From Escherichia phage vB_EcoS_SA126VB, in the sequence record OL960573.1: a DNA stretch of 61,753 nt, one strand, 5' to 3'. The notes under the pieces were generated by a model that saw only the letters and a program-made list of their open reading frames with translations, had not been told where the DNA came from and searched no databases. The position numbers and the translations under genes are program-made. Positions 27,011 to 50,577 of this stretch are shown here, one piece after another. Position 1 is the stretch's first letter, and every line of letters begins with the position of its first letter.

Positions 27011-27037
27011 TATTAAAACAGACCCGCGAAGGGTCTG
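27011..27037 (-). terminator. rho-independent terminator after DNA polymerase gene
   Basis: CAGACCC-gcgaa-GGGTCTG followed on the minus strand by UUUUAAUA. Confidence 0.6.
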
Positions 27038-27047
27038 CAAGTGGAAT

Positions 27048-29033
27048 TTAGGCGTATCCCATGTCTTCGAGATACTTCTCTGCTTTAGCTATATAAGCAT
27101 CATAATCTATGTCGTCCGGTATTTTATCCGGTAGCGTCATGATTGGGACACCTCCCGCGCTACCAGCTACACGGTTGCCCGAGTTAGCATAGATTATTTC
27201 GGGAGTTTCTTCATTGGTGCTTAAATACCAGCGTACAACCTTACCCAAAAATTCGCCATTCCATACCGCGCCGCCTTTTACTGCACGTAGGATAATGAAT
27301 TTTCTAATATCGTTGCAATTGCGTATAGTACGAGAAACAGGCGTACCGTGGGCCAAACATTCACATACAGCTTCCATAATAATTTCACCAGTACAGTTCT
27401 TTTGAAGCCCTGTTTTCGCGAACCAGCCTTTACGTTTAATTTCAACATTTCCTTCCTCATCAGGTTCTTTTACTGCAACATAGTTGTTGACGTTAGCACT
27501 GTACAGCTTGTCATAGTAGTTGGATTCCATTTTAAAACCTGTTACGGATTCCCACCACTTAATCATGTTATCAACGAAATCCTGCATGTGGTCAGGGTAC
27601 TTAACCACAATGCCATCCGTGTTAGCTGAAATTACTTTAACACCGTTCAGCTCAAACGCTTCAATAAGCATTAACAGAGATAGCTGTCCTGTGATAGTTA
27701 CCTGTATCAACAATTGCGGCGCGTACAATACAGACCACATTGAACCCAATTTACCGAACGATCCGTTGATTACGATCTTCAGCGTGTTGGCTGTGTTCTT
27801 GTCTCCTGAGTGCTTAGCCGCAATACGACGGTCTACAATGCTTTTATAAACACGAAGGAACGCTGGTCCCAACTGCTCAGGGTATAAGCCCTGATTAAGA
27901 ATAATTGAAGGGTAATAGGACGTTACGTCAATGTCTCGCTTCTTAATACCTGGCTCTTTACCGTGACCAGCACATTCTTCAGAGCTGTGTAGCCCACCGA
28001 TACCCATACGGTAGACACCGTCCGCAATCTTGATCTCCAGACCTGTTAAGGCTGGGGGCAAGCTAATGCCACCGTTATCGCTAACAACAAAGCGGCAGTC
28101 GCGAACAATATCCAAAACACTATTCATCAGAGGTGTTTGAAAACGAATAAAGTCCGGTATGTTATACGCATACTTTGTTCCAGGATAAACTTGGGGACGC
28201 TGCGGACGCACACCAGTTAACGCTTGAATTTCGTGTTTAATTACGTCTTCTGCAATCTGCGCATCAGAACGTGAACGCAGATCCACACCGTATTCTTGCG
28301 ACATAATTTCACGAAGATGTAAAGGTTCCTGTAATGCAATAAAACATTCTTCCGTCTGTACAAGGTCGTTAATACAGTACCAGCGTACAATAAGCATCTG
28401 GTCCTGCGTCAACATTGTATTTGGCTTGAACGGTAAATCCTGCATACGGCGAGTATGTACACGTCCGCCATATTGTTTCAAACCACCAGATCCAGGCAGA
28501 ACTTCCATAATATCAATGTGGTTAACGTTCTGCATACGCTTGAGACGGTAACTTTTCAATACATCCGAAGGACGCCAATCTTCAACGATTATCTTATCGG
28601 TTGCGTCTTTAAGCTGCGCATTAGAACAGCCGTTAAGCGCAAGCGTAGCAATGGTCATATCGTAACCGTTACCGTTAAAGCTCACGATAAGGAAGTTTGT
28701 CATTACCCAGTTAAGTAGCAAGCAATTCAAACTACAACCGTGATACATTTCGAAGTAGACAACTTTCTTAGTCCTTACTCCGCGGAATGCGATCAAGAAG
28801 TAGTTTGAATAACATTCAATATCATATACAAGCGGTTCGCGGTTAATCCATGCTTGAATAAGTTCATCCTGTGTGTACAGGTTGTATTGGAAGTTCCGCG
28901 CTTCCTCAAGATTAGGCAAATAATCCGGGCGCTCCCAAGTGCGCTCCGGCGGTAAACGTTTAACTTTTTCTTTCTTTGCTTTTGGCTCAGGCGGTAAGTC
29001 CTGCCAAAAGAAACCAATAGCATCTGTCCGCAT
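27048..29033 (-). CDS. DNA polymerase, family B (compact, with 3'-5' exonuclease motifs)
   Basis: Exo motifs YDIECYS, FNGNGYD, YCINDL; polymerase motifs DVTSYYPSII (A), KIVINGSFGK (B), SANTDGIVV (C); ATG 29033 overlaps upstream stop (TAATG), GGAGAA RBS; track start 29087 is TTG. Confidence 0.75.
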   Translation of the reverse strand: MRTDAIGFFWQDLPPEPKAKKEKVKRLPPERTWERPDYLPNLEEARNFQYNLYTQDELIQAWINREPLVYDIECYSNYFLIAFRGVRTKKVVYFEMYHGCSLNCLLLNWVMTNFLIVSFNGNGYDMTIATLALNGCSNAQLKDATDKIIVEDWRPSDVLKSYRLKRMQNVNHIDIMEVLPGSGGLKQYGGRVHTRRMQDLPFKPNTMLTQDQMLIVRWYCINDLVQTEECFIALQEPLHLREIMSQEYGVDLRSRSDAQIAEDVIKHEIQALTGVRPQRPQVYPGTKYAYNIPDFIRFQTPLMNSVLDIVRDCRFVVSDNGGISLPPALTGLEIKIADGVYRMGIGGLHSSEECAGHGKEPGIKKRDIDVTSYYPSIILNQGLYPEQLGPAFLRVYKSIVDRRIAAKHSGDKNTANTLKIVINGSFGKLGSMWSVLYAPQLLIQVTITGQLSLLMLIEAFELNGVKVISANTDGIVVKYPDHMQDFVDNMIKWWESVTGFKMESNYYDKLYSANVNNYVAVKEPDEEGNVEIKRKGWFAKTGLQKNCTGEIIMEAVCECLAHGTPVSRTIRNCNDIRKFIILRAVKGGAVWNGEFLGKVVRWYLSTNEETPEIIYANSGNRVAGSAGGVPIMTLPDKIPDDIDYDAYIAKAEKYLEDMGYA

Positions 29034-29986
29034 TAGACACGTTCTCCAATTAATACACCGCGAAGATTGTCCCCAAAGAATGCGCAAGGTTGCGGATATA
29101 AACTAAAGTCCGCAGTCTTAACCACATTTTCAAGCAATAACAGGATATCAATATTGTACACTCCCGTTATTGTTCGGTCCTGTAATACGAAGCTTGCACC
29201 TTCCGCATCATCATAGTGAGTACGGGCTAGACCGTTTTCAATATATACACGCGGTCGGTCTTCTGCGAACGGTTTAATTTTATGCAAGCCCTCAAAAAGA
29301 CCTGGATCAACAGGATGTGCATTGCATTGAACATTTAAAATACGACGTATATCGGGCCACTCCGCATCAATAAGCTGTGTTCGCAACCAGCGACCTTCCG
29401 GATAATGAAACGTTACATTGTTCTTACTAACCTGAATATGTGTCGGGTTAGCTTTAATGCGAAGTATTTCTTTAATAGCAACAGACGGTATTATGCAGTC
29501 AATAGGGAATTGATTACCAAACCAATATTCCGCAATGGTGACGTTATTTGTAGCAAACAGGCTACCGTTATTAATCAGAATACCGCAAGCCCACGGGCGG
29601 GACGCATCCGAGCCTACAAACGGAGCAACAGACTTCACACCGTGTACGAAGCGAGCACCGTCTATTTCGTATAAATCACCTTCAGGGAATACGTGAGGCG
29701 TTTCCTTGTCAATGCAGCGTATAGCAACACGAAACGGTCCGGACTTAATATTAAGTTTACCGTTAGCCATCATTGTTAACTGTACGGTTTCGTCACAGTT
29801 TGAAATAGCTTTAATCATAGGCCCAGCTTCAGGCTTGCAATCAATATCCAGCTCAATAGGGCTACCCAGTGCAATAACACCGTTAAAGCCCTGTACCTGT
29901 CCATCACGGATAAGAAAGCTGGTAAGCCCTTCTACCAGTTCCTTTTTAGCGACGGACCCTTGAACAAATTTAAGAGCGTCTAACAT
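29033..29986 (-). CDS. beta sliding clamp-like protein (DnaN-like)
   Basis: 317 aa; LIDAEWPDIRRILNV closely resembles the DnaN segment LVDGRFPDYRRVLP (recalled from memory); translationally coupled to polymerase. Confidence 0.5.
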   Translation of the reverse strand: MLDALKFVQGSVAKKELVEGLTSFLIRDGQVQGFNGVIALGSPIELDIDCKPEAGPMIKAISNCDETVQLTMMANGKLNIKSGPFRVAIRCIDKETPHVFPEGDLYEIDGARFVHGVKSVAPFVGSDASRPWACGILINNGSLFATNNVTIAEYWFGNQFPIDCIIPSVAIKEILRIKANPTHIQVSKNNVTFHYPEGRWLRTQLIDAEWPDIRRILNVQCNAHPVDPGLFEGLHKIKPFAEDRPRVYIENGLARTHYDDAEGASFVLQDRTITGVYNIDILLLLENVVKTADFSLYPQPCAFFGDNLRGVLIGERV

Positions 29987-30213
29987 TAGCGATCCTCGAT
30001 TGCTCTAATTGTGGTTAAATCTAATTCGCAGGTTGGAGGGTATCCATAAAGTTCCATTTGTTTTCCTTGTGCATTAAACCATGTACCTGATGGATCCTGC
30101 CACTGCTTAGGTGTCTTGTGGAGAAATACTACTCTGTTTTCACCATAATAATTAATTCTTACTCCTGTGTGAGTATATTTACGTTTACCTTTTGGTCTTC
30201 TTAAGTTAGCCAT
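29986..30213 (-). CDS. hypothetical small protein
   Basis: 75 aa, Lys/Arg-rich N-terminus; start and stop both overlap neighbours. Confidence 0.4.
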   Translation of the reverse strand: MANLRRPKGKRKYTHTGVRINYYGENRVVFLHKTPKQWQDPSGTWFNAQGKQMELYGYPPTCELDLTTIRAIEDR

Positions 30214-31133
30214 CAGAACAACTCCATTACACGATCACGGAATGTGCCGTCATGGGTGGCGTTAATGTTTGCAGCAATTACACCATACGCCCATAAGTTG
30301 AAGGCAGCACGTGATTCATAGATTGTTGATAAACGTTCGTAAGTGAAACCGTTTTGCTCAAGGTATTTAAGGACAGCGTCTTGTTCGATTTCAGTTAATG
30401 TTGAAACATGCTTACCAAAATGATGGCGGTCCGGTGACTTATCTGATACGCGCATTGGTCCCCACGGAGGGGTAACCACACTTCCAAACGCTGCCGCTTG
30501 AATCCAGGAGGATGAGTCGCAGCTATACCACGGATAACGTTCCATGATGGTTGTTGACGTAATACCAAACGCATGAAGTTTAATCTTAGCACGTCCGCTA
30601 CCGTCGCAAATATATTTGTCCCACATGCGGTCAAGCCAAGTCTTAAGCGTGTCCGTGGAACGCCCTACCATGCCCCCGATGGTGATATATTCGTAGTTCT
30701 TCATGTAGTATTCAAGATAGCGGAAGTCTTCACCAAAGTGAAAGCAAGGTAACGGTTTAGCACCGCGTGCTTCCATTTCAAGCTGGTTACGGTAGGTTTG
30801 CAACGGGTCACCGATACCATCGAGTACCGACGCCATTACCGCACCATCTTCAACGCGAAGGATGTCTTTGTTGCGCTTAATGTATTCGCAGTATTCAACA
30901 ATATCAATGTGAGCACCTAAAGAATGTGCAGAGAATGCACCGGAGTCGAGAAATACTTTAGCCCCGTCCGCACGCATCTGATCAACATACTTTTGACGCC
31001 CAACGTAGTGATATGATTCCAAAATATGGGGCAGATTGCGCGTGATATTTTTCTCATGCTCAGACAGCTTTTCATAACGCTGCTGGCCAGGCATATATCC
31101 GTTCGTGTAAACTGCTGCCATAAAAACGTTCAT
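30213..31133 (-). CDS. dpdA: DpdA-like tRNA-guanine-transglycosylase-family protein (predicted DNA 7-deazaguanine transglycosylase)
   Basis: 306 aa; FLDSGAFS matches the TGT catalytic DSGGFQ region; no CxCxxC..H zinc motif; sits beside folE/queD/queC/queE. Confidence 0.65.
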   Translation of the reverse strand: MNVFMAAVYTNGYMPGQQRYEKLSEHEKNITRNLPHILESYHYVGRQKYVDQMRADGAKVFLDSGAFSAHSLGAHIDIVEYCEYIKRNKDILRVEDGAVMASVLDGIGDPLQTYRNQLEMEARGAKPLPCFHFGEDFRYLEYYMKNYEYITIGGMVGRSTDTLKTWLDRMWDKYICDGSGRAKIKLHAFGITSTTIMERYPWYSCDSSSWIQAAAFGSVVTPPWGPMRVSDKSPDRHHFGKHVSTLTEIEQDAVLKYLEQNGFTYERLSTIYESRAAFNLWAYGVIAANINATHDGTFRDRVMELF

Positions 31134-31336
31134 TTTTGGAACGGCCCTCCAAACTGATCAATTAGTTCTAAAGTACGCCACGTTTCATTAAATGCTTCGT
31201 CCGCTCGATGTTTAGCGTCAATAAGCTGCTGCTTTAAAACATCTGTAGGCGCATCATTCTGTACTGCAGAGCAAGCATCTGCAGTACCTGCTTTAAGCTG
31301 GTAGAATGCTGTCTCTAAGATTAGTTGTCTTGACAT
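31130..31336 (-). CDS. hypothetical small protein
   Basis: ATG 31336 preceded by GGAGGA; track start 31363 lies inside the folE terminator hairpin. Confidence 0.35.
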   Translation of the reverse strand: MSRQLILETAFYQLKAGTADACSAVQNDAPTDVLKQQLIDAKHRADEAFNETWRTLELIDQFGGPFQK

Positions 31337-31352
31337 ATTTCCTCCAATGACT

Positions 31353-31389
31353 AAAAAGCCCATACCAGTATTATGACCGATATGGGCTT
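31353..31389 (-). terminator. rho-independent terminator after folE
   Basis: AAGCCCATA ... TATGGGCTT 9-bp stem followed on the minus strand by UUUUUAG. Confidence 0.55.
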
Positions 31390-31407: not shown

Positions 31408-32055
31408 TTATTTACAAGCTTCGAGGAACTCCCGGCGCCAATATGCACCCATATCGGTTCCCCCCAGCCCCGCGCGTGCGGTGCATCCGCGGAATGCTTT
31501 GGTAATAGTAGAGCTGCCGCATACCTGCTTAACACCGCGCGACTCCATGCACATATGCTTGGCGTCAATATAAACACATACAGCTTTCGGGTTTAAATGC
31601 TCCTGAATAGCGTCAGCAATCTGGTTAGTTAGACGCTCTTGCACTTGCAAGCGACGGCTAAAAGCATCAACCACGCGAGACAGTTTACTGAGCCCCACGA
31701 TGCGACCGTTAGGAACATACCCCACGACAGCGCGACCGATAATAGGGGCCATATGGTGTTCACAATGACTGTAAACAGGAATATCACGAACAATGACCAT
31801 TTCATTGGTGTTTTCCGCCCCATCCTCAAAGGTTTTAAACAGACCAGCAATATCTACATCGTAACCGCTAAACCATGTGGCATAAGCTTTAGCGACACGG
31901 TCTGGAGTCTCTGCTAATCCTGGACGTAATTCAATGCAATCTTCAATCTGAGTTAGTAAAGTATGCACCGCGCGAGCAATACGGAATTGAGTACCTTCAT
32001 TATCAATAGTAAATTTTGGCATGGTTTGCAGTTTCCTTGTTGTTAATGTGGTCAT
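31408..32055 (-). CDS. folE: GTP cyclohydrolase I
   Basis: 215 aa; [30 protein letters not shown] contains the FolE CEHH signature. Confidence 0.85.
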
Positions 32056-32057
32056 AC

Positions 32058-32549
32058 TTACAGACTATAGTTTACGTGACATTTCGAAGTTTCTTCGATG
32101 GTGCATTCTACAAGTTGAACACCATGTTCGTCAAGTAGTTGCGGTCCAATTACTTCAACCATATATGCAGCTAGGTTTTCGGCGGTAGGGTTGAACGGTA
32201 AAGATACCAGCGAGTTGTCAAAGTCCCTTACATCGTGACCCGTAGCTTCGTCACAAAGTTCAAGATCAACCTGAAGAGCTTTAATCAAAGGATCTTCTTC
32301 CCAGTGTAGGAATTTATGATCCCAATTATCTTCCAACCACTGGCAGAGCGTAGTTTTAACCACACTAAAATCGATAACTCGCCCAACGTCGTCCAGCAAA
32401 ATACTATTGATTTCTTGCGACCCTTTTTTCGGTGCAACCTTAAAGTGAAACTTATAGTTGTGACCATGAAGGTGACGACACTTACTTTCATGACCCACAA
32501 CACGGTGACCAGCGCAAATTTCATGTGAACGAATTACTGTATAACTCAT
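32058..32549 (-). CDS. queD: 6-carboxy-5,6,7,8-tetrahydropterin synthase
   Basis: 163 aa; CRHLHGHNY (CxxxHGH zinc motif); AGAGGT RBS. Confidence 0.85.
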
Positions 32550-33136
32550 TTTAATACCTCTTTAGACTGTTCAATTTCTAACGCACGTTGCGCCGACGCA
32601 ATAATGTCTTTCAGATCTTCTACCAGATTCTTATGACCGCGTTCGCCCGGCTGCAACGCCTTTTTAATCAAATGTTGTAAAGCTGGGTTAGTTGTGTTCC
32701 AAGCTTCCAAGACATCATAGACGTCCACGATGCATTTTACAACATTGCCGTTTTGATCTTTACCATAAATAACTTTCTGATATTTATTCATGGGAATTTT
32801 AGATGGTTCGTATTTCGTAAAAACTGCACCATTAAATGTATTACTTATGCTTATTCCAGAAGAAGGTTGATGGTACAATCCGGAGCGAGTGTTTTCGCTG
32901 GCTTGGTTGACGTAATCTTCCGCAACAATATATCGCCAGGCTATGATATCTTGAACTTTATAAGGGCTATTTTCATCCATAGCTGAACGCCCTTCCATAG
33001 CCCAATCCCATCCATGTAATAGATTCTTAACGTGTGTGCCGTTGCGCAAACGAACTTCAAACTTCTCATTACGAAGAAAAATAGGCATTCCTTTACCGTC
33101 GTGTAGGTGCCAAATTTTATTCAAATTATCTTTCAT
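32546..33136 (-). CDS. hypothetical protein embedded in 7-deazaguanine cluster
   Basis: 196 aa from ATG 33136 (stop of upstream gene 2 nt away); no recognisable QueF/ArcS/amidotransferase motif. Confidence 0.5.
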   Translation of the reverse strand: MKDNLNKIWHLHDGKGMPIFLRNEKFEVRLRNGTHVKNLLHGWDWAMEGRSAMDENSPYKVQDIIAWRYIVAEDYVNQASENTRSGLYHQPSSGISISNTFNGAVFTKYEPSKIPMNKYQKVIYGKDQNGNVVKCIVDVYDVLEAWNTTNPALQHLIKKALQPGERGHKNLVEDLKDIIASAQRALEIEQSKEVLK

Positions 33137-33138
33137 TT

Positions 33139-33618
33139 TTACGCTCTCGCTGTACGTGAATGAACTTCGTAAACAACCCAAAGGATAGCAGACGCTGTGA
33201 ACTTACTTAAGCTCATTGCTACCATCGATCCCGGATTAACAATACCTATAATACTTAAGAACACAATGGAGTCAATCGGTACAGCTACCAAAGAGCTGAT
33301 AAATACTCGTTGATGGAAAGGCTTCTTGGTGACCGTGTATACTACATAGTCCGCAAACTCACTAAGCGCAAAAGACGCAACGGATGCAACTACAACCGCA
33401 GGATCACCGAACACCCAGCTAAGAATGCAACCAACAATCATTGCAGGGATGACGCCTTTGCCAGCGTTACGCTGTGCGTAATCACGCAGAACAAAGATAA
33501 TGCCTACAAAGAAAGCCATCATGGGGACTACGCCAAGTGGCGTATTAAGCATCGGAAGGTAGGAAAAGCCCAGGTTTACGAATGTAATTGCAGCCAGATA
33601 AGCAACGATAAATTTCAT
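33139..33618 (-). CDS. putative queuosine-precursor (preQ0/preQ1) transporter, YhhQ/DUF165-like membrane protein
   Basis: 159 aa, 4-5 hydrophobic helices; loose resemblance to YhhQ; adjacent to queC; GGAGAA RBS. Confidence 0.4.
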   Translation of the reverse strand: MKFIVAYLAAITFVNLGFSYLPMLNTPLGVVPMMAFFVGIIFVLRDYAQRNAGKGVIPAMIVGCILSWVFGDPAVVVASVASFALSEFADYVVYTVTKKPFHQRVFISSLVAVPIDSIVFLSIIGIVNPGSMVAMSLSKFTASAILWVVYEVHSRTARA

Positions 33619-33738: not shown

Positions 33739-34461
33739 TCAAATGTGTTTGCTGTAAGCCTTATCCATAAATTCGCTATAGCCTTTAGCGCGAAGTTTAC
33801 ACGCCGGGCATTCCCCGCAACCGTATCCCCAGTCATGCAGAGTACGACGGACGCCATTATAGCACGTATGGGACTGCTCAATTACTGTGGTTAAGAAACC
33901 AACCTTATCCGCCAGCTCAAACGTTTCTGCTTTATTTAAACGCATAAGCGGTGTAACAAAATGGATATCAGTTTCATATCCAACGTTTAATGTAGCTTCA
34001 AGAAGATCAACAAACTGCTGGCGGCAATCCGGATAACCGCTATAGTCTGTTTCACAAACGCCTGTAACCACATATCGAGCACCAACTTTCTGCGCGTAAG
34101 CGTGCGCGGTAGTAAGGAAAAGAGCATTACGGTTTGGCACAAAGCTTGCCGGAAGGTTGTTGTGCTGTTCGTGATGTTCGTTAACATCACCTTCGTCCCC
34201 GATTAAAGCGCTATTCCCAATCTGTTTCAAAGCAGGTAATTCAAAGACAACAAATGGGACATCGTGCTCTTTACAAATTTGATTAGCACAAGCCAGCTCA
34301 ATGTTATGACGTTGACCGTATGCAAAACCAATAGCGTAGACCTTATCATAGTTATTAAGGGCAAGGCCCAAACAGGTTACGCTGTCCTGGCCGCCAGACA
34401 GGACGACAACGGCGGAGTTATGATTTTTTACAGGGAATACCAGTTTATCTAATTTATTCAT
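33739..34461 (-). CDS. queC: 7-cyano-7-deazaguanine (preQ0) synthase
   Basis: 240 aa; PP-loop VVLSGGQDS; C-terminal Cys cluster CYNGV...CGECPAC; no fused amidotransferase domain. Confidence 0.85.
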   Translation of the reverse strand: MNKLDKLVFPVKNHNSAVVVLSGGQDSVTCLGLALNNYDKVYAIGFAYGQRHNIELACANQICKEHDVPFVVFELPALKQIGNSALIGDEGDVNEHHEQHNNLPASFVPNRNALFLTTAHAYAQKVGARYVVTGVCETDYSGYPDCRQQFVDLLEATLNVGYETDIHFVTPLMRLNKAETFELADKVGFLTTVIEQSHTCYNGVRRTLHDWGYGCGECPACKLRAKGYSEFMDKAYSKHI

Positions 34462-34651: not shown

Positions 34652-34856
34652 CTACTTCACCTTTAATATCACAAGGGTTGATTGTTACGTTAGACATTAC
34701 AATTGGATGATTACGCGCTCCAATTGTACTAACGTAATTAATATCTAATTCTACATGCACGCCCTGCATAGTAGCGTGAGCAATCGAAGAATTAAGTTTT
34801 TCTACCAGCTCAGTAATCATTTCCTGATGCTGTTTCGCTTCTTCCAAAGTGATCAT
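34644..34856 (-). CDS. hypothetical small protein
   Basis: 70 aa between queC and queE; stop overlaps queE start region. Confidence 0.4.
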   Translation of the reverse strand: MITLEEAKQHQEMITELVEKLNSSIAHATMQGVHVELDINYVSTIGARNHPIVMSNVTINPCDIKGEVDE

Positions 34857-35563
34857 TATTCCACCCCGATATATTTGTGAACCTGAAGCTGCAACGTGTA
34901 ACCGTGTTTCATACAGCTTTGGACAACGGCTTGGATGTTACTGTGGTTAAGGTTTTCATCCTGCTCGTCCATTGGCTGTAAATATATCTTACCCTTGAAC
35001 CCCTTCGGAGGTCTAGCGATAAATGGCGTAGCTTGATGATCTAATGCTTGAAAAGGTAAACCATCTACCACGTTTACACAGCACGCTTTAAGTACATATT
35101 TAAATGCATTAGCGCGGTACAGCACAGAAGGGTGAATCTTTGAGGTTTTGGGGCTACATACAATCACAGGTAACTGGGAAAAGTTCTTAGGTAAAGGCAT
35201 AGACCCATTAGTCTCAATTTGCACCAAATACCCGCGCGATAACAGTTGTTCGACAAACGGGTTAATTTGCTGGCGGAATGGTTCACCCCCAGTAATAACC
35301 ACAAGTGATGTGCTATTGCCTGATTCCAGCTTACGGCTTTCGATTAAACGCATAATATCGACAATATGATAAAGACTACGACCAACAGTATAATCCGTAT
35401 CACAGCCAGGACATTGCAGGTTGCACCCAGCAAGACGCACAAATACAGCAGGTTGGCCGCAAAATGGACCTTCACCCTGAATGGTAGAGAATACCGAATG
35501 CACGTCTAAATACATATCGTTTTCTTTAGAACGGGACTCGGGAGCTTGTTGATTAATATTCAT
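34856..35563 (-). CDS. queE: 7-carboxy-7-deazaguanine synthase (radical SAM)
   Basis: 235 aa; RLAGCNLQCPGCDTDY (CX3CX2C radical-SAM motif); AGAGGA RBS. Confidence 0.8.
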   Translation of the reverse strand: MNINQQAPESRSKENDMYLDVHSVFSTIQGEGPFCGQPAVFVRLAGCNLQCPGCDTDYTVGRSLYHIVDIMRLIESRKLESGNSTSLVVITGGEPFRQQINPFVEQLLSRGYLVQIETNGSMPLPKNFSQLPVIVCSPKTSKIHPSVLYRANAFKYVLKACCVNVVDGLPFQALDHQATPFIARPPKGFKGKIYLQPMDEQDENLNHSNIQAVVQSCMKHGYTLQLQVHKYIGVE

Positions 35564-35576
35564 CTTAAATCCTCTA

Positions 35577-35606
35577 GTGAAAAAGAAAGCGCCTCATTGG
35601 GCGCTT
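35577..35606 (-). terminator. rho-independent terminator upstream of queE
   Basis: AAAGCGCC-tcatt-GGCGCTTT followed on the minus strand by UUCUUUUUC. Confidence 0.55.
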
Positions 35607-35632
35607 TCATTATAACGTGATATGTTTTGATA

Positions 35633-36436
35633 TTACAAGCCGTTCAGGGCTTCCGGTACTGGCATAGGCACGCGACCAGTTATACCATTGAACTTCTTCC
35701 AACGTGCATACTGAGTTTTAACAGTATCTTCGTTCAGACCGTGACGACCTGCCAGATTCAGGACATAAGAGATCGGAGCAGGCTGACCCAGTGTAGCGCT
35801 AATCTGATCCATCAGAGCCCAGGCACGACCGCAGGAAGTTTCAGGTTGCGGACGACGAACACCATTCTGTTCCGGCATACGGTTCGCTTCTTTCGCTTTC
35901 ACACGTTCAGCTTTTTCGCGGGCTTTTTCAGCAGCCTTTTCAGCCTGTTTAGCAGCGCGGATCTTGTCTTTGAAGCTTTTAATAGACGAATCCAGTTCGT
36001 CAACCATGCTCTGAGCAGCAGTTACTGCACCGGACAGATCTTCGCCTTTGGATTTTTTAACAACTGCTTTCAGCTCTTTCAGAGCATTCTTTAAATGCTT
36101 CAGCTGTTCAGAACCCTTAGATTCTGCTTCCGTAATCTGTTCAACAGTGCTTTCATCGGTAATACCGGATAAAGCAAACTTCACGGTTTCAACTGCCTGG
36201 GAAAGAGCGGTAAATTTATTTTCCGCTTCAGTACGGATTTCAGCTTGTTTCTTTTCAGCGGCAGCTTTTTTCTCTGCTTCTTTTTTCTCTTTTGCTACGC
36301 GTGCAGCTTCAGCGGCAGCGGCTTTTTTAGCTTCTGCGTCGTTAGCAGTAGCTTCTTTCTTTGCAGGCTTAGCAGATTTTGCAGCGGCAGCAGCGGCTGC
36401 GGCAGCAGCGGCTTTCTTATCTTCAATATTACTCAT
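35633..36436 (-). CDS. Ala/Lys-rich protein with basic low-complexity N-terminus
   Basis: ATG 36436 with GGAG RBS (track start is GTG); N-terminal AAAAAAAAAAAKSAKPAKKE...; globular C-terminus. Confidence 0.5.
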   Translation of the reverse strand: MSNIEDKKAAAAAAAAAAAKSAKPAKKEATANDAEAKKAAAAEAARVAKEKKEAEKKAAAEKKQAEIRTEAENKFTALSQAVETVKFALSGITDESTVEQITEAESKGSEQLKHLKNALKELKAVVKKSKGEDLSGAVTAAQSMVDELDSSIKSFKDKIRAAKQAEKAAEKAREKAERVKAKEANRMPEQNGVRRPQPETSCGRAWALMDQISATLGQPAPISYVLNLAGRHGLNEDTVKTQYARWKKFNGITGRVPMPVPEALNGL

Positions 36437-48214: not shown

Positions 48215-48246
48215 CAATAAAGGGCCGAAAGGCCCTTTATTTATTT
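48215..48246 (+). terminator. rho-independent terminator
   Basis: AAAGGGCC-gaaa-GGCCCTTT followed by ATTTATTT; overlaps stop of leftward primase gene. Confidence 0.65.
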
Positions 48247-50577
48247 GCTTAAGTCCTTGAAAACACTCTCAATCGACTCGTCTATATACCAACCCAATCC
48301 CCTGAAATTACGCTTCAACGCATCTTCACGCGTGACTGGAACGAGCGCGCCCATATCTACAAGTTGTTTGATAGTAAGGTCTGTTGCAGTACCTGCTCCC
48401 ATCCTGTGATTCTTGAATGCTGCCAGACCGTATGTCCTGCGTGTGATAGTTGCCTTCGGGATAATACCGTCAACGCGCAGCTCCTTACGATCACATGCAA
48501 TCTTACCGCCAAGATAGTCTTTGCAGACCTGGCAAATAGCCTTCACGCGCGTTTCATCATCACCACCAATAGTACCTTTTTCCCATGCGTTGATCATGAT
48601 GTCCTGCCCATGCGTAACAAAATCTACCGCCCATTGCATGTGATTGGGCTGAACGACAGGATTGATCCAGTTTTCCCCTACCGCTAGCAGGGACGCAAGG
48701 CGCAGAGCTTTAAGGTGCGCACGGTTCCACGGCTGACGAATAGCTTCGTCTTTAGTTGCGTTAATGTGTTCATCACACAACAAGTTAAACTCCCGCTCAA
48801 TCCTTGCAGCTTCCGGGCTTAACTGGACGGTGACGGTCTGGAACTTCGCCATTGTTACTAACGTGTGGTTAACAAGATGGCACACCATATCCTTTAATTG
48901 CTGGGGCATTGTGATTTCAGGATTTTCGTTTGCAGGAACACGATCCCCTTCATATTGCACAATGTGGAAACGGGACAAGAAACCGTCTTCCATCATTTCA
49001 CGTGTTAACGCTTCAAAGAATGTGTCCGGTGTTGTTTCGCCCAGCACGCTGAACGCCACCCCTTCCATCGTCTTGGTATTATTAGCCTTATCAGAATATC
49101 CAATACCGCCAACAACATCCATCGCACCAGATTTTTGATACACATCTGTAATAGTTTGCTTCAGGGTATAGTTCGCAGTACCAGGCTGAGCTGTCGCCAT
49201 ACCTTTAATGGTTTTACCAAACTCACCGTTAATATTCACAAACGAAGTATGATCCGCAAAACTTTTACGCAAAGCAGGACCGGAAGCATAGTTAGTCATG
49301 TCTACAAATTCATGCACTTGCGGCAATTGCTCGCCTACCTGCTTACAAATATAGCTGGGTCCAGCGTGAAGCATTTCTTTACCCACACCTGATCGGGCAA
49401 TAAGGACAAAGTAACCGTTCAGCCCTGTGTTGGTGATAGTATTCCACACCTTGCCACATACGCCGGATAAGAATGCTAAAGATGCAGTGATTGCAATTTC
49501 TTTCACCGGACGCTGCGATGCTTTGTAGATATACTTCGCAAGCTCTCCAGCAAGTCCCGGCGGCCATTCAATAGCGGTTGCATCAATGGACGTGCTTTCT
49601 GCAACTACTATTTCACCGGACGGGCTGACTGTGGTTACAGGCATTTCCGTTACCTGCTGCATTGCACTGTGTGCAGCTTGCATACGGGCAGCGTAATCCC
49701 GCGCCAGCGCCGCTACGTTTTCCTGGGCAATACGCTCACGCTCCATACGACCGCGGCACATGCGCAAACAACGGTCAATATGAACATTGTTCTTATTAGC
49801 CTTCTCACGTTTGCCCAGTGCACTGTAACGGAACAGACGGCGACATTGCTCATTACTTTCTGTGTAGAATGCATACATAGAAATAAGAGCAAGATCTGCT
49901 TCAGACTGGGAAGGGAATCCCATTTCAACCCATTCGCCATTGAATAGGCGTGCATACTTGTCCCCGTTGTCCGCTTCAAGTGCACGCTGGTGAATAGTTG
50001 CATCGTCTTCTACCGGATCTTTTTCTACCAGTTCAATTTCATATGTCTTGCGCTGAAGATCAATTTCATTCACAAGCATAGTAAGATAATGATCGCGTTC
50101 AGCAACTGGTTTGTTGTAAACGGGATTACCTGTGCAGATAATAAAACGCTCCTGACTATAAACCTCGACACCATCACGTCGACGACCTTTACCGATGTTA
50201 CCTCTTAACCACAGGTGAACACCCAAGCCTGAGCGACTTACTTCGGTGTAAGTATCGAACGCAGTCATGATCTGTTCGAAGCGGCGCAACTGTTCCGGCG
50301 TTGTGTGCTTCTTGGGATCCGGTTCATTGGTTGCGTTCTTCACATCCAGGTCGATGCAGGTGAACGGGTCTTGCGCAGTAAGCACAAAGCCAATATAAGG
50401 TTTGTTGAAATGAGCGGCGCAACCTTTGGCAGCTTCAAAAGTCATTAGCATATCCGGATCGGTAACGTCCGCCGCCATCAAACGTCCGATATCGTTGTCC
50501 CATACGAGCGGCTTTTTGTCCGTATCGGCGACCGCCCATTGTGGGAAAGCTTTAATCTCAGCGGGAAACAATTCCAT
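48241..50577 (-). CDS. replication protein with primase-polymerase (PrimPol)-like N-terminal domain
   Basis: 778 aa; N-terminal YIGFVLTAQDPFTCIDLD...GLGVHLWLRG..GVEVYSQERFIICTG resembles bifunctional primase/polymerase domains; central P-loop-like ARSGVGKE. Confidence 0.55.
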   Translation of the reverse strand: MELFPAEIKAFPQWAVADTDKKPLVWDNDIGRLMAADVTDPDMLMTFEAAKGCAAHFNKPYIGFVLTAQDPFTCIDLDVKNATNEPDPKKHTTPEQLRRFEQIMTAFDTYTEVSRSGLGVHLWLRGNIGKGRRRDGVEVYSQERFIICTGNPVYNKPVAERDHYLTMLVNEIDLQRKTYEIELVEKDPVEDDATIHQRALEADNGDKYARLFNGEWVEMGFPSQSEADLALISMYAFYTESNEQCRRLFRYSALGKREKANKNNVHIDRCLRMCRGRMERERIAQENVAALARDYAARMQAAHSAMQQVTEMPVTTVSPSGEIVVAESTSIDATAIEWPPGLAGELAKYIYKASQRPVKEIAITASLAFLSGVCGKVWNTITNTGLNGYFVLIARSGVGKEMLHAGPSYICKQVGEQLPQVHEFVDMTNYASGPALRKSFADHTSFVNINGEFGKTIKGMATAQPGTANYTLKQTITDVYQKSGAMDVVGGIGYSDKANNTKTMEGVAFSVLGETTPDTFFEALTREMMEDGFLSRFHIVQYEGDRVPANENPEITMPQQLKDMVCHLVNHTLVTMAKFQTVTVQLSPEAARIEREFNLLCDEHINATKDEAIRQPWNRAHLKALRLASLLAVGENWINPVVQPNHMQWAVDFVTHGQDIMINAWEKGTIGGDDETRVKAICQVCKDYLGGKIACDRKELRVDGIIPKATITRRTYGLAAFKNHRMGAGTATDLTIKQLVDMGALVPVTREDALKRNFRGLGWYIDESIESVFKDLSK

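Follow-up and report, generated by a model that had tools for sequence, protein, structure and literature searches.

A phage DNA-guanine transglycosylase of the DpdA1 subfamily and its possible link to the sliding clamp

Insertion of a 7-deazaguanine into phage DNA has been characterised in Escherichia phage CAjan. Wild-type CAjan DNA contains 70,628 dPreQ0 per 1e6 nt, or ~32% of G, and in a mutant deleted for the transglycosylase gene dpdA, dPreQ0 drops to <6 per 1e6 nt and all tested restriction enzymes cut the DNA (PMC6884629). Nanopore mapping shows the CAjan modification at GA and GGC (PMC7544227). The related DpdA of phage 9g, when expressed in E. coli, inserts 7-cyano-7-deazaguanine (preQ0) into DNA (PMC6884629). 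The papers searched describe DpdA modification only as 'post-replicative'. Considered here is dpdA as encoded by Escherichia phage vB_EcoS_SA126VB (sequence record OL960573.1), whose 61,753 nucleotides were analysed as one stretch, termed the window. An earlier reading of the sequence, here called the original prediction, had proposed a 306-aa open reading frame (ORF) at 30213–31133, and this stands: the gene (30213..31133) has an ATG start on the minus strand and codes for a 306-aa DNA-guanine transglycosylase (preQ0 insertase) of the DpdA1 subfamily.

The window DpdA is identical at 306/306 residues to CAjan gp35 (YP_009196829.1), and 29 phage records carry a copy at ≥99% identity. Its match to phrog_887 has E = 8e-96, and a search of 50%-identity cluster representatives yields 5614 relatives at E ≤ 1e-3; with the CAjan identity, this puts the match to the family far beyond chance. 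The published 30-nt CRISPR spacer for the CAjan dpdA knockout has an exact match at 30626–30655. The window appears to be a complete Seuratvirus (Queuovirinae) genome, whose plus strand carries the structural genes and whose minus strand those for replication and modification; tRNA genes and a terminal repeat were looked for throughout, and none was found. The 3.1 kb around dpdA show 94–97% identity to Escherichia phages Dru_SM1, KurtStettler, CAjan and Seurat. GA and GGC contexts account for 28.4% of Gs in the window, both strands counted (62,718 per 10^6 nt), which is near, and consistent with, the 32% (70,628 dPreQ0 per 10^6 nt) measured for CAjan.

The gene is therefore almost certainly a phage DpdA1, i.e. 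a compact TIM-barrel enzyme without zinc, related to the tRNA-guanine transglycosylases (TGTs), that acts on double-stranded DNA and inserts preQ0 for guanine. The central claim of the original prediction, a DpdA-type TGT homolog that exchanges DNA bases, is correct, and has been proven for the identical CAjan protein (PMC6884629, PMC7544227). Because the literature covers that protein, the function is settled; the enzyme identification is already known, and the gene as such, a further copy of a validated anti-restriction DNA-hypermodification enzyme, brings no novelty. The record annotation ought to read DpdA (DNA-guanine transglycosylase), not 'queuine tRNA-ribosyltransferase'.

Homology is hard to see at the level of curated sequence models. 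Pfam gives no match for the DpdA protein, and so none to TGT (PF01702). In an alignment of 119 sequences (A2), which brings together homologs of three diverged clades at 25–75% identity, one member touches PF01702 (E = 0.098) and one the Pfam DpdA model. The NCBIfam model of bacterial DpdA (NF041059 / PF23859) scores 16.9 bits on the window protein against a 200-bit cut-off (E = 0.0022), over residues 147–212 only; 96 of the 119 relatives match this model weakly, with a best E of 8.9e-5. Searches of PDB sequences by phmmer and with the 119-sequence profile gave nothing meaningful.

The predicted structure is more informative. An AlphaFold2 (AF2) model based on the 119-sequence alignment has a predicted local distance difference test score (pLDDT) of 93.9 and a predicted template modelling score (pTM) of 0.90. 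With this model, Foldseek returns 115 PDB matches at E ≤ 1e-3; every one of the best 50 is a tRNA-guanine transglycosylase. In the structural comparison the best match is the DNA enzyme DpdA, ahead of the TGTs; next come QTRT2 (17.3), bacterial TGT (17.0), archaeal TGT (15.8) and Cap10 (14.9), with generic TIM barrels at ≤11.8. Structure prediction, which the original prediction had proposed as a check for the presence or absence of a TGT fold, thus yields a (beta/alpha)8 barrel of the TGT type. A first model, built on a shallow alignment of 37 sequences at ~70% identity, was unusable (pLDDT 65; ArcTGT matches at E ~0.02, TM 0.38).

Residues D63, S64, D105, H132 and D206 are invariant in the 119-sequence alignment, down to 25% identity, and these are the residues that Kot et al. 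assign to the preQ0/guanine pocket and to catalysis (PMC7544227). It should be pointed out that residue roles are taken from that published structure-based alignment, and not from superposition of the present model. The motif FLDSGAFS, reported by the original prediction, is present at residues 61–68 (30930..30953, minus strand); conservation is complete at D63, S64 and A66 and at least 90% at F61, G65 and S68. Asp63 is the general base for preQ0 N9, and Ser64 and Phe67 line the base pocket (PMC7544227). A second motif, YSCDSSSW (residues 203–210; 30504..30527, minus strand), has invariant S204, D206 and S207 and contains the catalytic nucleophile, Asp206 (PMC7544227). The proposal of a catalytic aspartate in the DSG motif therefore needs one correction: Asp63 is catalytic, but it is the general base, and the nucleophile is Asp206 (PMC7544227).

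The proposed chemistry would start with synthesis of preQ0 from GTP by the phage FolE, QueD, QueE and QueC. DpdA would then flip a target guanine from the duplex, the CAjan targets being the G of GA and the first G of GGC. Attack of Asp206 on C1' would release guanine and leave a covalent enzyme–DNA intermediate; Asp63, in the DSG motif, would deprotonate preQ0 at N9, and attack of preQ0 on C1' would give dPreQ0 in DNA. With approximately a third of the guanines replaced, many restriction enzymes would be blocked. Homology with TGT and with bacterial DpdA suggests this double-displacement chemistry for the window enzyme. Three points weigh against the identification as a preQ0-inserting DpdA1. 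The covalent-intermediate chemistry has been inferred for phage DpdA1 and demonstrated for no member; the measurements are those of CAjan and not of this phage, whose DNA around the gene is ~6% different though the protein is identical; and the curated models of Pfam and NCBIfam place the protein in neither TGT nor DpdA.

A separate observation concerns relatives of ~600 aa (P0365 and P0369, also P0384, P0388, P0433 and P0403), which have ~320 aa inserted between Y203 and S204. The inserts stand two residues before the nucleophile Asp206, at a position equivalent to nt ~30522–30527 of the window. They begin with Cys (CMTEEDH...) and end in ...VTGN, followed by Ser, and one has a weak LAGLIDADG match. 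From their sequences, these inserts look like inteins within the active-site motif.

The part of the protein that invites a new proposal is its C-terminus. Residues 294–306 (30216..30254, minus strand), which end in RVMELF, form a flexible tail that is a candidate sliding-clamp-binding peptide; the C-terminal peptide reads DGTFRDRVMELF. In the AF2 model, where pLDDT is otherwise >90, this tail is the one low-confidence stretch: it is modelled as coil and has the lowest pLDDT. Its final residues, L305 and F306, each reach at least 90% conservation in the 119 sequences. In the CAjan-like clade the tails read [RM][IV]QELF, with an LF end in 115/120; Rhizobium-phage-like tails read E[QE][RG]LF (98/120) and Dp-1-like tails [YR]Q[RK]RLF (111/120). 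More distant DpdAs end in DQLGLF, DQIGLF or QQALF, and 9g-like loci have ...LQDLFDE, where the motif is set three residues from the end. In bacteria, clamp binding is mediated by the motif QL(D/S)LF, which tolerates variation and usually occurs on flexible termini (PMC6511837). The window tail lacks the consensus Gln, with M in place of Q; the motif is inherently degenerate.

At the ends of DpdA tails, every one of the six Leu codons, the two Phe codons and the three stop codons is in use, and the distance from dpdA to the next gene ranges from overlap to >400 nt. This diversity of codons and spacing implies that selection acts on the tail peptide and not on the nucleotides. A nucleotide-level cause, by overlap with the downstream gene or a Shine-Dalgarno sequence, was rejected on the same grounds.

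The clamp in question is encoded two genes downstream of dpdA. This beta-type sliding clamp, or DNA polymerase processivity factor (317 aa; 29033..29986, minus strand), matches phrog_947 at E = 4e-82, and also TIGR00663 dnaN (E = 2e-8) and Pfam DNA_pol3_beta_2 (E = 1.7e-4). It is followed by a family B DNA polymerase (PolB; 27048..29033, minus strand; phrog_1252, E = 2e-227), which has 661 aa as read from ATG 29033. PolB matches the NCBIfam PolB/PolII models weakly, and its CAjan counterpart is annotated as a DNA polymerase.

From three seeds, ~240 viral loci were collected and reduced to 167 non-redundant DpdA clusters, 165 of which have complete tails. In 78/78 complete loci seeded from the 119-sequence alignment, the gene after dpdA on its own strand includes a clamp homolog downstream. 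LF stands at the very end of 86/165 complete DpdA tails, as against 0.85% of 4569 other ORFs. LF-type tails go with a same-strand clamp ≤3.5 kb downstream (101 with and 4 without, against 29 and 24 for other tails; Fisher p = 4e-10, kinship ignored), and never with a ParB-like neighbour (0 with and 107 without, against 25 and 33; Fisher p = 7e-14, kinship ignored). The strict pattern used for these counts scored the variants GFGL, GLL and SLI as having no tail; a broader definition, a terminal hydrophobic pair, has a background of 13.6% and is found in 110/130 clamp-linked DpdAs versus 3/23 ParB-linked ones.

The ParB-linked DpdAs, which include those of Rosebush (L085), phi3ST:2 (L086), Mufasa8 (L087), Typha (L088) and ~20 metagenomic clusters (L089–L108 and others), end in ...LW.KRG[IV]KW. 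and have a ParB-like gene directly adjacent and no clamp nearby. This arrangement parallels the bacterial DpdA/DpdB pair. By their tails, phage DpdAs fall into a clamp-linked and a ParB-linked type. A rough neighbour-joining tree suggests five or more changes of partner type, although trees at 20–30% identity are unreliable. The DpdA literature, searched with full texts included, does not mention the clamp, ParB neighbours or the C-terminus, and no description of the clamp-/ParB-linked dichotomy was found there.

The polymerases encoded beside the clamp carry a comparable peptide at their N-termini. PolB of the window begins with MRTDAIGFFWQD (28998..29033, minus strand), followed by a Pro/Lys-rich linker, and this start is conserved in PolB phages: M-R-x-D-[AS]-[IL]-G-[FL]-F-W-x-D plus a low-complexity Pro/Lys-rich linker is found in 51 diverse loci (PolB homologs in L001–L084). 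Judged by its sequence, this is probably a clamp-docking peptide. In distant clamp-linked phages whose DpdA ends in GFGL, GFSL, GFLL or GLL, the clamp is followed by a family A polymerase (with UDG-like, exonuclease and PolA domains) that begins M-K-G-F-F, M-E-G-F-F or M-S-G-F-F; where DpdA ends in NRLL, the family A polymerase begins MNSLL. A G-Phi-[FW] start occurs in 72/109 post-clamp ORFs versus a 12% background (p = 3e-31). Thus two non-homologous polymerases and DpdA have one type of terminal peptide, and all are encoded around the same clamp family. Co-variation between DpdA tail and polymerase N-terminus is not visible within PolB phages, where both are nearly constant, and is seen only across PolA phages.

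These comparisons point to a model in which the clamp-linked DpdAs, that of the window included, would be anchored on the sliding clamp through a conserved, flexible C-terminal Q-x-(x)-L-F peptide, so that base exchange would take place on DNA leaving the replisome. The model, drawn from sequence comparison, is rated an even call. The ...ELF tail would hold the enzyme on the clamp, and fresh DNA would be modified at once. DpdA would share the binding cleft of the clamp with the phage polymerase, which would use its N-terminal G-Phi-F peptide. The clamp would stand in for the ParB-like partner (DpdB) that bacterial DpdA needs and that is encoded beside the tail-less phage DpdAs. The original prediction had suggested that base exchange is tied to replication; this goes beyond the published, solely post-replicative view, and the comparative analysis adds new, if indirect, support.

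Perhaps the LF tail does not bind the clamp at all, but serves folding or dimerisation of DpdA, contact with DNA or docking of QueC for channelling, or reflects nucleotide constraints of the overlapping downstream gene. This has to be taken seriously, although the balance leans somewhat against it. TGTs act as dimers, Gat-QueC was suggested by its authors to channel preQ0 to DpdA (PMC6884629), the window tail, RVMELF, has no Gln, and the codons CAG GAG can serve as a Shine-Dalgarno sequence for the next gene; all of these count against a clamp-binding tail. On the other side, codon and stop diversity and variable spacing put selection on the peptide; the tail has no regular structure and is modelled with less confidence than any other part of a structure otherwise at pLDDT >90, and ParB-linked DpdAs also occur with QueC, yet have no tail. 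Finally, a like terminal peptide is present on two unrelated polymerase families beside the clamp.

Expression data bear on the same question. The 9g DpdA modifies E. coli plasmid DNA without the phage clamp (PMC6884629), a further point against the tether. Its activity there shows that the clamp is not essential for the chemistry. Replacement in E. coli amounts to 0.03–0.3% of G, or 5–9% with Gat-QueC, versus 25–32% in phage DNA (PMC6884629). Activity without the phage clamp is thus 3 to 800 times below that in phage DNA, and the host beta clamp is present in those cells.

If the clamp-tether model is true, it could explain why these enzymes replace 25–32% of guanines and the bacterial enzyme <0.1%, and DpdA would be the first DNA base-exchange (hypermodification) enzyme riding on a sliding clamp; a search of the literature found no report of a DNA base-exchange enzyme using a clamp. 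A clamp-docking tail would bear on how phage DpdAs reach ~30% guanine replacement within one infection cycle, and on how modification could keep pace with replication and leave no unprotected DNA exposed. There is a eukaryotic parallel: DNMT1 binds PCNA through a PIP box.

Other proteins with similar termini were seen. Two distant clamp-linked phages each encode, in the que cluster, a further protein that ends like the local DpdA, in ...PILGFGL (L118:2-943) and ...PPGGFGLL (L155:999-1730). Neither has a Pfam match; by their termini, both may be further clamp clients, perhaps extra DNA-modification enzymes. The family A polymerase of the second phage (L155:6846-9527) is interrupted by an intein with HNH and NUMOD3 endonuclease domains (Pfam Intein_splicing, E = 2.5e-16). 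In the window itself, a primase/helicase (48241–50577, minus strand; prim-pol + DUF3987, phrog_3022) begins with MELF, the same residues that end DpdA, which may be coincidence.

The neighbouring genes are tightly packed. Upstream of dpdA is a small ORF (31130..31336, minus strand; phrog_20065; CAjan gp36), whose stop overlaps the dpdA start. The phrog_20065 match spans residues 10–77 of a longer reading of this ORF; its true start is probably the ATG at 31336, which gives 68 aa, has GGAGG five nt upstream and agrees with the CAjan annotation. The small ORF is absent from phage SA80RD. Between dpdA and the clamp is a 75-aa ORF (29986..30213, minus strand; phrog_38388, E = 1e-56), which is confined to close Seuratvirus relatives and was seen in CAjan-like loci only. 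The minus-strand junctions are ATGA at 31130–31133 (small ORF to dpdA), TGATG at 30211–30215 (dpdA to 75-aa ORF), TAATG at 29984–29988 (75-aa ORF to clamp) and TAATG at 29031–29035 (clamp to PolB); PolB starts at ATG 29033, not at TTG 29087. The start/stop overlaps bear out, at the sequence level, the translational coupling of small ORF, dpdA, clamp and polymerase that had been predicted.

Signals for transcription units flank these genes. Between folE and the dpdA unit there is a terminator- or attenuator-like hairpin with a 14 bp stem, a 6 nt loop and a U-run (31353..31389, minus strand). Its RNA fold has a free energy of -23.8 kcal/mol (z = -3.9), and 0/200 shuffles fold equally well. A predicted promoter-like site, TTTACA-18-CATAAT (31399–31370, minus strand), overlaps the hairpin; the equivalent site of SA80RD is annotated, in silico, as a rho-independent terminator plus promoter. 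Just past PolB lies a terminator-like hairpin with a T-run (27018..27038, minus strand), where SA80RD also has an annotated terminator, and this likely marks the 3' end of the dpdA-clamp-PolB unit. Another terminator-like hairpin precedes queE (35585–35608). From the hairpins and promoter-like site, it follows that dpdA, the 75-aa ORF, clamp and PolB probably form a translationally coupled unit of their own, at least partly apart from the que genes, and the folE/dpdA hairpin and promoter-like site may split the que genes and dpdA-clamp-PolB into separately regulated units.

The genes for preQ0 synthesis, folE, queD, queE and queC, all lie within 4.5 kb upstream of dpdA on the same strand. These are folE, GTP cyclohydrolase I, for the first preQ0 step (31408..32055, minus strand; Pfam GTP_cyclohydroI, E = 6e-63); queD, CPH4 synthase of the PTPS fold (32058..32549, minus strand; Pfam PTPS, E = 2e-24); queC, preQ0 synthase (33739..34461, minus strand; Pfam QueC, E = 7e-75, residues 17–231 of 240); and queE, a radical-SAM CDG synthase (34856..35563, minus strand; TIGR04322 and TIGR04508, E ~1e-27; phrog_2076, E = 4e-68). 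A YhhQ/Vut_1-like gene (33139..33618, minus strand) encodes a putative preQ0 (queuosine precursor) transporter; its matches to Pfam Vut_1 (E = 2e-5) and TIGR00697 (E = 1e-4) are both under the curated cut-offs, and the CAjan annotation is 'putative preQ0 transporter'.

QueC of the window has no glutamine-amidotransferase (Gat) domain, and no QueF, ArcS or DpdC-like gene was seen in the cluster with Pfam, NCBIfam and PHROG profile searches. With QueC lacking Gat, and neither QueF nor ArcS present, the expected product is dPreQ0 as in CAjan, and not archaeosine. Insertion of another 7-deazaguanine (archaeosine, preQ1, ADG or CDG) is very improbable. The DpdA family does vary in this respect, with dG+ in 9g, dPreQ1 in Dp-1 and preQ1/preQ0/CDG for the DpdA2 of VH7D (PMC6884629, PMC10516641), but CAjan, which has the identical DpdA and the same gene set, contains dPreQ0 only, other derivatives being <6 per 1e6 nt (PMC6884629), and the missing Gat domain, QueF, ArcS and DpdC-like genes also speak against a different base.

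Two regions near the que genes are worth recording. The stretch from queD to the YhhQ-like gene (32546–33181, minus strand) is variable in close relatives: the window has one ORF of 196–211 aa (phrog_23361), CAjan two ORFs and SA80RD a different pair. Directly upstream of the que cluster, 35633–36436 (minus strand) encodes a 267-aa Ala/Lys/Glu-rich protein with a run of 11 alanines near its N-terminus; the CAjan annotation is an 'FtrA domain' transcriptional activator, and terminator-like hairpins are present on both sides.

Among known systems, CAjan is the closest. It has the same gene order (queE-queC-yhhQ-like-queD-folE-small ORF-dpdA-small ORF-clamp-PolB) and a DpdA protein without differences; the surrounding DNA is ~94% identical and the ORFs between queD and the transporter gene vary. 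The DpdA of phage 9g (Nonagvirus) is 69% identical to that of the window over its full length, and its gene is likewise upstream of clamp and PolB (loci L012–L016), but the 9g pathway has Gat-QueC and its end product is archaeosine (dG+), whereas that of the window and CAjan is dPreQ0. The DpdA tail resembles the QL(D/S)LF clamp clients Pol II, Pol IV, MutS and MutL in having a short hydrophobic motif on a flexible terminus; it differs in being a candidate motif read from sequence, MELF without Gln.

With the TGTs (ArcTGT 1IQ8, bacterial TGT 1P0E and eukaryotic QTRT1), the window DpdA has in common the (beta/alpha)8 barrel, the base pocket and the two catalytic aspartates, and ArcTGT also takes preQ0. 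The TGTs differ in their tRNA substrate, their zinc subdomain and, in ArcTGT, extra C-terminal domains, and their sequence similarity to the window DpdA is undetectable with hidden Markov models (HMMs). That the gene encodes a queuine/archaeosine tRNA-ribosyltransferase which retunes host tRNAs and leaves DNA unmodified is scarcely credible and effectively refuted, since, despite the label 'queuine/queuosine tRNA-ribosyltransferase' in the records of CAjan, Dru_SM1, SLUR phages and others and a fold that is that of tRNA enzymes, deletion of the identical CAjan gene strips all 7-deazaguanine from DNA (PMC6884629), the nearest structure is the DNA enzyme DpdA and not a TGT, the zinc subdomain and C-terminal RNA-binding domains of TGTs are missing, and no tRNA gene was found in the window.

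The zinc site also separates the window enzyme, as a DpdA1, from bacterial DpdA. The window protein has only four cysteines (82, 130, 176 and 205), and neither CxCxxC nor any close-set Cys pair was found in the whole 306-aa sequence. The original prediction had noted the lack of a zinc motif 'as reported' for DpdA proteins; the absence holds here, but the generalization does not, as bacterial DpdA retains the site (PMC10164549). The crystallised bacterial enzyme keeps a CxCx2Cx22H zinc site, described by the authors of the structure as a conserved feature of the DpdA family (PMC10164549). It is therefore the compact phage subfamily, and not DNA-acting DpdAs in general, that has lost zinc. The bacterial DpdA (Salmonella Montevideo Dpd system, PDB 7UI4) is ~100 residues longer, and its insertions Ins1, 2, 3 and 8, like its zinc site, are absent from the window protein. 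It requires the ParB-like ATPase DpdB, whereas the window DpdA adjoins a clamp and has no ParB-like neighbour; an HMM made from the phage ParB-like neighbours found no ParB-like ORF in the window at 20–41 kb or in CAjan-like loci. Bacterial DpdA modifies <0.1% of Gs, and the CAjan copy, identical to that of the window, ~32%.

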